From Escherichia coli (GTDB lineage Bacteria > Pseudomonadota > Gammaproteobacteria > Enterobacterales > Enterobacteriaceae), in assembly GCF_003334405.1 (NCBI RefSeq), contig NZ_QOWM01000002.1: a stretch of DNA of 64,000 bases; one strand, given 5' to 3'. A program made the translations under genes and the position numbers. A model generated the notes under the pieces. It saw only the letters and a list, made by a program, of their open reading frames with translations, was not told the DNA's origin and made no database searches. The stretch's first letter is position 1. Each line of letters begins with the position of its first letter. Of the stretch, positions 17,871 to 38,330 are shown one piece after another.

Positions 17871-18341
17871 TTACTCGATGACGACCAGCGGCTCGTCAAA
17901 TTCTACCGGTTGTCCACTTTCGACCAGAATTGCTTTCACGGTACCGGATTTGTCCGCTTCGATCTGGTTCATCATTTTCATGGCTTCAACGATGCACAGG
18001 GTATCGCCCACGTTGACTTTCTGACCCACTTCGATGAACGCTTTTGCGTCCGGGCTTGGGGTGCGGTAGAAAGTACCAACCATCGGGGAACGTACGATGT
18101 GACCACTGATTTCCGCTGCTGCTGGCGCTTCCATGGAAGGAACGGTCGCCGGAGCGGCTGCGTTAGATTGAGCTGGCTGCTGCATCATTGGTGCAGCGTA
18201 AGCTTGTTGCATCACAGGGAAACTTGCGGCAGGAGCTGCACGGCTAATGCGTACTGACTCTTCGCCTTCAGAAATTTCCAGTTCGGAGATGCCTGATTCT
18301 TCAACCAGCTCGATCAGTTTTTTAATCTTACGAATATCCAT
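17871..18341 (-). CDS. accB: Biotin carboxyl carrier protein
   Basis: 156-aa ORF with Ala/Pro-rich linker and biotinylation motif EAMKMM. Confidence 0.96.
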
Positions 18342-19318
18342 GAGTGGGTTCCGTACTCTTTGTTTAGTGTGATTGTGACAGGCGTTTCACCGCCGTCTGT
18401 AAAGCGTATGCCCCGACAGCTGTATGCATAGCGATAAATTCCAGCAGGCCGGGACGCCGGTCTATTTTGCCCCAGAGTGTCAATGTTAGACTTGACGGAC
18501 ATTGTGCAGCGATCTGCTGCTATCCTCCGGCAAAAAACAAAATATACCTTCGTTGCGCCAATGTCACCTTTTCCGCAGCGCAAAAACTGCGTCAGGGAGG
18601 ACGAGGTCGCACATTATAACGATTTCGTAGCAATTGGCAGCTAAATACTGGTCTTATCAGGGAAGATAATCAACAGCTAACATGTAAATAACCTTCAACA
18701 CCGTGTAATTTGCAACAAGCCGCACAATTCACGAAATTAGCGCCATCATCGACGGAACTTCTTATAACGTAAGGTGAAAAGCTGAAAAGCCAGCCCTGCG
18801 AAGATGAGGGGCTGCAATGAGATAATCTTCACAGACCACAAATAATGTAGGGATGCCAGGATCGCGACAAGATAGACGACATTACGCAGCGGTTGCTGGG
18901 GATTACCCAATTTTCACTGCATCGTCTGGATAGATGTGAATGCTAAAGCACGCAAAATTAACCGATTGACAATGCTCAGCATTAAATAGGTTCGAGTGAT
19001 TAATTTGTAGTCAAACAAAATCAGATTATTCACCCCATGGTACCAGAAATAAGTAAGGGGCTAAGCGTAGCGTCGCCCAGGCAAAGCACCATAAACCTAA
19101 CAGGCGACGGAGGCGTATCAATAATAGCTGTTTAGTGGAGTATCAATGCGCATCAATTTGTGGTCAGTCGAAATCATGACTTTCCAGTTTGGATGATGTT
19201 GTATAACTTCCTGACCAAGGTGTTCGACGAAAGCTGTCCGGCTAACCGCTTTTCCCGTTAACCGATTGAATAATGATTTCAAAATGAGTTCCCTCTCTTA
19301 TTATTCCCTGCTAAATGG

Positions 19319-20293
19319 TTAGTTAACCTTCACCAGCGTGCGACCCTGGATCTGGTTATTAATGATGGCCTCGGCAAAGTTCGGTGCCTCTGACAGAGAT
19401 ATCTCTTTTGCCGCCTGGGTATAGAATGATTCCGGTAAATCGGCGACCAGTCGCTGCCAGGCTTGTGCGCGGCGTTCTGGTGGCGTCATTACTGAATCCA
19501 CCCCTTGCAAACGGACATTACGCAGAATAAATGGCATGACCGTGGTTGGCAGAGTAAAACCACCCGCCAGACCACAGGCCGCCACGCAGCCGCCGTAATT
19601 CATTTGCGCCAGCACTTTTGCCAGCACTTTGTCGCCAACGGTGTCAATTGCCCCAGCCCAGACTTGTTTTTCCAGAGGACGGGATTCGGCAAACTCATCA
19701 CGAGGGAGAACACGGCTAGCACCTAAACTTTTCAGATATTCATGGGTACTTTCGCGACCGGAAACGGCAACGACCTGATAACCCAACTTATGCAGCAGCG
19801 CCACGGCGGTACTGCCGACGCCACCACTGGCACCCGTCACGACAATCTCCCCGTCCTGCGGGCGAACACCGGCATCTTCCAGCGCCATCACACACAGCAT
19901 GGCGGTAAAACCGGCAGTACCGATAATCATTGCTTTACGCGCGTCCAGCCCTTGCGGCATGGCAACCAGCCAGTCACCTTTCACTCGCGCCTGCTCCGCC
20001 AGCCCACCCCAGTGGTTTTCACCAACGCCCCAGCCAGTGAGTAACACCTCCTGACCGGCATGAAAACGCGGATCTTCGCTGGTGCGTACAGTTCCGGCAA
20101 AATCGATCCCAGGAATCATCGGAAAATTACGGATGATTTTTCCCTTACCGGTAATCGCCAGCGCATCTTTATAGTTCAGGCTCGACCAGTGAACATCGAC
20201 CGTGACATCGCCCTCCGGCAGGCGACTTTCGTCCAGAGTCTGTACTGATGCGAGAGTTTTGCCGTCCTGCTGTTCTAAAAGTAACGCCTGCAT
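19319..20293 (-). CDS. acuI: NADPH-dependent acrylyl-CoA reductase / quinone oxidoreductase-like (MDR superfamily)
   Basis: 324-aa ORF with nucleotide-binding motif TGASGGVGS. Confidence 0.9.
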   Translation of the reverse strand: MQALLLEQQDGKTLASVQTLDESRLPEGDVTVDVHWSSLNYKDALAITGKGKIIRNFPMIPGIDFAGTVRTSEDPRFHAGQEVLLTGWGVGENHWGGLAEQARVKGDWLVAMPQGLDARKAMIIGTAGFTAMLCVMALEDAGVRPQDGEIVVTGASGGVGSTAVALLHKLGYQVVAVSGRESTHEYLKSLGASRVLPRDEFAESRPLEKQVWAGAIDTVGDKVLAKVLAQMNYGGCVAACGLAGGFTLPTTVMPFILRNVRLQGVDSVMTPPERRAQAWQRLVADLPESFYTQAAKEISLSEAPNFAEAIINNQIQGRTLVKVN

Positions 20294-37647: not shown

Positions 37648-37650
37648 GTC

Positions 37651-37680
37651 AAAACCGACGCCAAAAGCGTCGGTTTTTTC
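37651..37680 (+). terminator. Rho-independent terminator after aaeB
   Basis: AAAACCGACGCCAAAAGCGTCGGTTTTTTC hairpin plus T-run. Confidence 0.65.
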
Positions 37681-37738
37681 ATGGCTATACTTAGCGATGC
37701 ACGGCAGAACTCGCCGCGAAACGTGACGGTGGCAACAG

Positions 37739-38011
37739 ATGAATATTTATACCTTTGATTTTGATGAGATTGAGAGTCAGGAGGATTTTTATCGTGACTT
37801 TAGCCAAACCTTTGGTCTGGCGAAAGATAAGGTACGCGATCTCGACTCACTATGGGATGTGTTAATGAACGATGTCCTGCCGCTACCACTTGAGATTGAA
37901 TTTGTTCATCTGGGAGAGAAAACGCGTCGCCGTTTTGGCGCGTTAATATTGCTGTTTGATGAGGCAGAGGAAGAGCTGGAAGGGCATTTGCGTTTTAATG
38001 TTCGTCATTAG
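37739..38011 (+). CDS. yhcO: Barstar-like (ribonuclease inhibitor family) protein
   Basis: 90-aa acidic [30 protein letters not shown]..., recognised as barstar family; no barnase-like ORF adjacent. Confidence 0.8.
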
Positions 38012-38012
38012 C

Positions 38013-38040
38013 GCAAAAAAAAGCCCCCGAACCGGGGGCA
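38013..38040 (-). terminator. Terminator hairpin after yhcN
   Basis: A8 run plus hairpin GCCCCCGAACCGGGGGC on the + strand, which is hairpin plus T-run on the - strand. Confidence 0.45.
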
Positions 38041-38066
38041 ATATCGTCGGACAAGACGATGAGGGT

Positions 38067-38330
38067 TTATTTGTACAGTTCAGCCGTAGCGTGCCAGGTG
38101 TCACCGCTACGAGCTTCAGTAATCTGGTAGGCCGTTGCGCCTTTCTCTTCCGCTTTTTTGTTCAGCATTTCACGCATATCCATTGGCGAAGACGCCACAC
38201 CACTTACGGATACGGTCCCGATTGCTTCACGATTTTGTGCTTGTGCAGCATCAATGGAGTCGGCAGCGAATGCACCGAAAGAGAGAACAGAAAGTACGCT
38301 TAATGCAGCAACAGTGGTTTTGATTTTCAT
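38067..38330 (-). CDS. yhcN: Small periplasmic stress-response protein (DUF1471/YdgH-BhsA family)
   Basis: 87-aa ORF from MKIKTTVAALSVLSVLSFGAFA signal peptide (ORF track extends 17 codons upstream). Confidence 0.8.
   Translation of the reverse strand: MKIKTTVAALSVLSVLSFGAFAADSIDAAQAQNREAIGTVSVSGVASSPMDMREMLNKKAEEKGATAYQITEARSGDTWHATAELYK

Follow-up and report, generated by a model that had tools for sequence, protein, structure and literature searches.

The msrPQ (yedYZ) operon specifies a periplasmic methionine sulfoxide reductase and its haem-binding membrane partner, and the interval between acuI and accB is exactly where Klebsiella and Citrobacter have this pair intact. Transcription of accBC, the operon that follows, reportedly starts about 300 nt upstream of accB. 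The gene order acuI-yrdF'-yrdE-accB has been published, with yrdF and yrdE termed pseudogenes (J. Bacteriol., PMC7648144), and the K-12 MG1655 RefSeq record carries both, yrdF as b4697 (3404495–3404637) and yrdE as b4646 (3404638–3405031), without product names. The corresponding interval of the window, by which we mean the whole 64-kb stretch of Escherichia coli DNA analysed here, is the same DNA, one nucleotide apart over 977 bp. To the K-12 description we add the parents of the two pseudogenes, a DUF1444-like gene and an MsrQ paralogue, a map of the deletions that produced them, and a third dead gene, aroQ, lying inside the accBC leader. We propose, at a probability of roughly 0.92, that the interval is a scar of gene loss, and that the accBC promoter and mRNA leader are likely to be the only working parts left in it.

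The interval occupies 18342–19318, between the end of the acuI ORF at 19319 and the accB ATG at 18341, both genes being on the minus strand, and the original prediction had placed it exactly. It had also reported that the gene-bearing strand holds no ORF of 60 aa or more apart from one of 89 aa, and our ORF listing confirms this: the single such frame starts with TTG and runs across the accB start (18314–18583), and the next-largest are two of 54 aa. The description of the gap as AT-rich is true but the bias is mild, with a GC fraction of 0.451 against 0.505 for the whole window. Its length, which had been called unusual, ranks second in the window when gaps are taken from a crude tiling by non-overlapping ORFs of at least 120 aa, a procedure that gives a median inter-ORF gap of 72.5 bp and leaves other long gaps that may contain small genes. 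Length is the only unusual property, because any non-coding DNA is without long ORFs. Two further stretches of the window, 37648–38694 and 4736–5639, each run for about 0.9–1.0 kb without an ORF of at least 120 aa in the same crude tiling and probably contain small genes.

The 977-bp stretch was found in every one of the 5426 complete E. coli genomes searched, and its K-12 MG1655 counterpart is 3404459–3405435 (window position = 3423777 − K-12 coordinate). No repeat or REP-like element accounting for the gap was found in it, only short repeats that probably arose by chance; one of these, also probably fortuitous, is an exact 12-nt direct repeat, TTAACCGATTGA, at 18958–18969 in yrdE' and 19258–19269 in yrdF'. 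The expectation that part of the gap would be accBC promoter and leader is borne out by a consensus match and by conservation across genera. The remainder had been regarded as unexplained, which does not hold, since the K-12 annotation already has yrdF and yrdE over 19282–18746. Of the contents that had been suggested for it, a small protein gene, an sRNA or a decayed gene, the last survives, as yrdF', yrdE' and the aroQ relic, and the first two gain no support. The gap is thus for the most part ordinary and already known, with annotations in place for two of its three relics; the aroQ relic, which had not been suspected, and a reconstructed ancestral order, acuI-(yrdF)-msrP-msrQ-aroQ-accBC, are a small addition.

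The yrdE' pseudogene (18746–19139, minus strand; the K-12 yrdE annotation converts to 19139–18746) is the relic of an MsrQ/YedZ paralogue and retains codons ~69–196. It shares 77% nucleotide identity with codons 69–195 of K-12 msrQ across 382 bp, its protein is 67–77% identical to residues 69–195 of K-12 MsrQ, and its conceptual translation matches positions 70–193 of the 212-position NCBIfam MsrQ profile NF003831 (E = 7e-27). The score of 94.3 bits falls below the curated full-length cutoff of 130 bits, as a fragment would be expected to. The first ~68 codons are gone, a frameshift lies at ~19037–19043 and an in-frame TGA at 18916–18914, upstream of the native stop at 18748–18746, and yrdE' is therefore a pseudogene and not a member gene of the MsrQ/YedZ family (PF01794). 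In other strains PGAP labels it 'sulfoxide reductase heme-binding subunit YedZ' or 'cytochrome b family protein; frameshifted; internal stop; incomplete'. An intact 196-aa MsrQ encoded at the syntenic position (P0002) is 75% identical to it in amino acid sequence and has the same C-terminus, LRYKKFRR followed by the stop.

Compared with the msrPQ operon of Klebsiella and Citrobacter, the window has wholly lost msrP, no trace of which is present next to yrdE' in the gap, and what is left of its MsrQ copy lacks ~68 codons and carries a frameshift and a stop. The working msrPQ of E. coli is found at another locus, beside hiuH and hprRS (L006, K-12 2039478–2041118). That yrdE' sits where relatives keep msrPQ suggests that this working operon occupies a secondary locus, and it may be a relocated or a secondary copy; pairwise MsrQ identities all fall at ~80–85%, too alike to tell an orthologue from a paralogue of the syntenic copy. 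The msrP-msrQ junction of the acuI-accB locus occurs in no E. coli chromosome. Separately, five large E. coli plasmids (NZ_CP019456.1, NZ_CP047601.1, NZ_CP102245.1, NZ_CP172135.1 and NZ_CP148367.1) have msrP and msrQ side by side, with 78.8% identity to the syntenic msrPQ of an Escherichia-like relative (L012).

On the acuI side of yrdE', the yrdF' pseudogene (19140–19282, minus strand; K-12 yrdF converts to 19282–19140) is what remains of a 276-aa DUF1444-like gene, namely its TTG start and the first 48 codons. The 36-nt spacer that separates it from the acuI stop (19283–19318, minus strand) holds the Shine-Dalgarno-like GAGAGGG of yrdF, and spacer and motif match, in position and in sequence, those found 5' of the intact gene in strain 2013C-3250. 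There the complete 276-aa yrdF, which PGAP names 'DUF1444 domain-containing', forms part of a 1732-bp long allele of the interval, and gap positions 1–179 are 98.3% identical to one such allele (L003). The parent matches the DUF1444 models weakly, with an i-E value of 0.0063 and 16.5 bits over profile positions 15–254 of 264 for Pfam PF07285, and E = 5e-5 with 23 bits against a cutoff of 221 for NCBIfam PRK13668. The YrdF N-terminus, LKSLFNRL (19282–19259), happens to resemble residues 194–201 of MsrQ, LRSLFNRL, with 16 of 25 nucleotides identical, probably by chance.

The open frame of yrdF' continues to a stop at 19118, giving a 54-aa ORF (19282–19118) that PGAP calls a hypothetical protein in some genomes. 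This frame keeps the native TTG and GAGAGGG of yrdF, begins 37 nt from the end of acuI without an intervening terminator, and, judging from the retention of these start signals, might be translated. What it encodes is nevertheless an N-terminal fragment of a 276-aa protein with six unrelated residues appended, in a region that the curated K-12 annotation treats as a pseudogene and where no small protein is annotated. The other frame from which a small protein could be made, an upstream ORF beginning at the aroQ ATG (18502), is without a protein-family match, and E. coli has AGCAG in place of the Shine-Dalgarno AGGAG that relatives have 5' of aroQ. We consider it highly unlikely that a small protein from either frame explains the gap.

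The distribution of yrdF is very narrow. Only E. albertii gave a match among 100,044 species genomes, a set of 5.8 billion proteins contains 11 homologues, and Citrobacter and Klebsiella have no yrdF between acuI and accB. A more distant homologue, 63% identical, lies on a metagenomic contig (L008 3898–4731) among plasmid- or phage-like neighbours (KfrA_N, Aca2/YdiL and DUF7352), and this neighbourhood is a hint that Escherichia acquired yrdF as a mobile gene. By extension, the whole AT-rich stretch might be read as a horizontally acquired islet instead of decayed ancestral genes, a possibility that we regard as doubtful: it is applicable to yrdF only, the msrPQ, aroQ and promoter parts being syntenic across genera, and for yrdF it complements decay and does not replace it.

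The intact arrangement from which the relics descend can be read from metagenomic contigs of an Escherichia-like relative (L010, L011 and L012) together with two finished or high-quality genomes. One contig (L010) runs from acuI through an intact yrdF with 76% amino acid identity to the start of msrP, complete with a Tat signal, MQRRQILK; another (L012) carries the end of msrP abutting the intact 196-aa MsrQ, followed by promoter DNA identical to that of the window; and the third (L011) leads from the same promoter into an ORF of which 30 residues match type II dehydroquinase models (E = 6e-9). Klebsiella aerogenes has the order mreB-csrD-acuI-msrP-msrQ-aroQ-accB-accC-yhdT-panF-prmA, intact, and Citrobacter enshiensis has this order minus aroQ, with 394 bp between msrQ and accB.

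E. coli has two deletion alleles of the interval. The short, K-12-type allele of the window is carried by ~88% of E. coli genomes, and the long allele with intact yrdF by 669 of the 5426. Comparison by blastn of window 18342–19318 with two long alleles (L003 2501–4232 and L007 5965–7693) showed matches at gap positions 1–179 and 281–977; positions 180–280, corresponding to MsrQ codons ~69–100, are missing from the long allele, which for its part has the whole of yrdF, followed by a terminator-like hairpin, and a degenerate msrP start. Because each allele keeps DNA that the other lacks, neither can be derived from the other, and each is a separate deletion from an ancestor with yrdF-msrP-msrQ. 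Since the alleles are non-nested, one deletion event does not suffice to explain their history. The long allele is also present in E. albertii, collinear throughout and with the deletion junction included, which suggests transfer between the two species or a shared polymorphism of long standing. With two coexisting, non-nested alleles, one of them common to E. albertii, the interval is a marker locus for recombination and population history. The hairpin that follows intact yrdF in the long allele is trailed by a T-run (L003 3430–3458) and is missing in the window, where no site resembling a terminator is predicted from acuI to accB. With the yrdF terminator lost and none predicted in the gap, acuI transcription may read through towards accBC.

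Outside yrdF', yrdE' and the acuI-proximal spacer, 404 bp of the gap remain, and these make up promoter and leader. The third relic is found here. At 18364–18502 (minus strand), DNA alignments with aroQ-accB loci and a tblastn search identify what is left of aroQ, the gene for type II 3-dehydroquinase. The relic begins at an ATG (18502), continues through ~90 nt, or ~30 degenerate 5' codons, to an internal deletion of ~315 bp, and resumes with the last 14 codons and stop (18408–18364, the TAA at 18366–18364), so that ~315 of the 453 bp of aroQ are missing. The alignments used three loci in which aroQ lies directly upstream of accB (L013, L014 and L017), and the relic is collinear with aroQ at this syntenic position. 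When AroQ was compared with the whole window by tblastn, the best match was 18411–18367, with 14 of 15 residues identical (E = 3.4e-4). The 89-aa ORF that crosses the accB start is an out-of-frame reading through the same relic, and a frameshifted aroQ in one of the three loci (L013) yields the same 'RFTD..TITLNK' peptide.

Searches of the relic frames against the NCBIfam HMMs and the PDB gave no match, whether to the dehydroquinase family (TIGR01088, PF01220) or to any other, and a 51-aa query against the 5.8-billion protein set returned Escherichia self-calls only. The aroQ assignment thus rests on DNA alignment, synteny and the 15-residue protein match, and the relic appears to be recognisable only through DNA alignment with syntenic aroQ-accB loci. 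It is not annotated in K-12, and a full-text search, whose coverage is incomplete and hence no proof that the relic is unreported, found no published description of it. E. coli, E. albertii and Citrobacter have one and the same deletion junction; the relic is therefore old, and the loss of aroQ predates the divergence of the three.

Comparison with K. aerogenes defines what was lost and what was kept. Its aroQ-accB-accC locus has the same promoter block, 5' UTR, last 14 aroQ codons and aroQ-accB spacer as E. coli; relative to it, ~315 bp inside aroQ are gone from E. coli, E. albertii and Citrobacter, and the former gene has become untranslated leader. Upstream of the relic, the first part of the accBC leader (18503–18605, minus strand) corresponds in the alignments to the 5' UTR of ancestral aroQ and is 76–88% identical across genera. 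Downstream lies the 22-nt aroQ-accB spacer (18342–18363, minus strand), which includes the accB ribosome-binding region and does not differ among E. coli, E. albertii, Citrobacter and K. aerogenes; identity across genera is 97–100% over the 69 nt that immediately precede accB.

The accBC promoter region (18606–18745, minus strand), ancestrally that of aroQ-accBC, contains a near-invariant block at 18690–18606, which is 98% identical in E. albertii, 95% in Citrobacter and 92% in K. aerogenes; for the 70 nt upstream of the block, the corresponding values are 87%, 59% and 41%. A promoter scan placed within the block a sigma-70-type site with 10 of 12 consensus matches, CTGCCA as −35 at 18640–18635 and TATAAT as −10 at 18618–18613, with 16-nt spacing. 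A second promoter-like site lies in the first part of the leader (GTGACA at 18567–18562 and TATTTT at 18544–18539, 17-nt spacing), and both are conserved 5' of aroQ in K. aerogenes. From its match to consensus and its conservation, we infer that the block holds the accBC promoter, and if the TATAAT site is used the leader would be ~265 nt long, as against the reported start about 300 nt upstream of accB. The unannotated aroQ pseudogene is the reason for the unusual length of this leader, and the relic identifies the presumptive accBC promoter as that of the old aroQ-accBC operon.

An RNA 3' end has been mapped at K-12 3405373 on the plus strand in a Term-seq-type data set (Adams et al. 2021, supplementary file 3; PMC7815308), which converts to window 18404 on the minus strand, within the leader, 63 nt upstream of accB, in the conserved 3' part of the aroQ relic. 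According to a 2026 preprint, overproduction of OmrA represses accBC mRNA. Taken together, the 3' end and the OmrA effect make regulation at the RNA level within the accBC leader plausible. They could also be taken, with the leader as a hub of RNA regulation, to favour an independent or 5'-UTR-derived small RNA encoded in the gap or in the leader, and a match to the Yersinia sRNA Ysr190 (RF02764) at 18539–18638 (minus strand) points the same way. That match, the only one in the gap from Rfam 15, scores 25.3 bits where the gathering score is 66, so that no family reaches threshold and the sequence is not a member of Ysr190, and its well-aligned part, the first 30 positions of the model, falls on the conserved promoter and start region itself. 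The resemblance probably reflects the conserved region upstream of aroQ or accB, and Ysr190 may be the aroQ/accB leader of Yersinia. Moreover, the fold of the leader is not distinctive, being no better than that of shuffled sequence (z = −1.3), the gap has no predicted terminator-like site, and no sRNA is annotated here in K-12. A small RNA is thus quite unlikely to account for the interval, and a scar of gene loss that retains the accBC promoter and leader remains the preferred reading.

The pattern of constraint along the interval agrees with this reading. Between K-12-type and Nissle sequences, identity is 92–95% in yrdE', 98% in acuI, 99% in accC, and 100% in the promoter, leader and accB. 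E. coli and Citrobacter are 38% identical in the interior of the relic (18447–18411), a value consistent with neutral decay, against 78% for the first 55 nt of the relic and 97% for the last 69 nt before accB. Judged from such comparisons, the pseudogene parts behave as unconstrained DNA, and the promoter block and the accB-proximal leader are constrained. Since conservation between the aroQ ATG and 18448, and again in the last 69 nt, is far better than in the neutral relic interior, it is conceivable that the accBC leader is a gutted aroQ gene retained as a regulatory RNA, an idea that we advance only tentatively. Segments of the relic may serve in the control of accBC, for example in AccB autoregulation, in pairing with OmrA, or in forming the 3' end at 18404.

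The proposed history is built on the observed homology of each piece, the synteny, the deletion junctions and the pattern of conservation, from which we infer the order of the loss events. The ancestor would have had an msrP-msrQ operon and aroQ between acuI and accB, with aroQ-accB-accC read from one common promoter, and Escherichia would additionally have had the DUF1444-like yrdF directly after acuI. The older deletion, common to E. albertii and Citrobacter, would have removed ~315 bp from the interior of aroQ. In the lineage of the window, a single deletion from yrdF codon 49, through all of msrP, to about msrQ codon 68 would have left yrdF' and yrdE', and yrdE' would later have acquired its frameshift and stop codon. 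With aroQ internally deleted, transcription of accBC would now start at the old aroQ promoter and pass through a ~265-nt leader composed of the aroQ 5' UTR and the aroQ relic.

A conspicuous 'empty' interval of 1 kb beside an essential operon is thereby found to contain no hidden gene, which closes the question that it posed. In two E. coli sequences, NZ_CP024134.1 (H1) and NZ_CM132249.1 (L015 5198–5895), IS1 has inserted within the interval, and these insertions are consistent with its being dispensable DNA.
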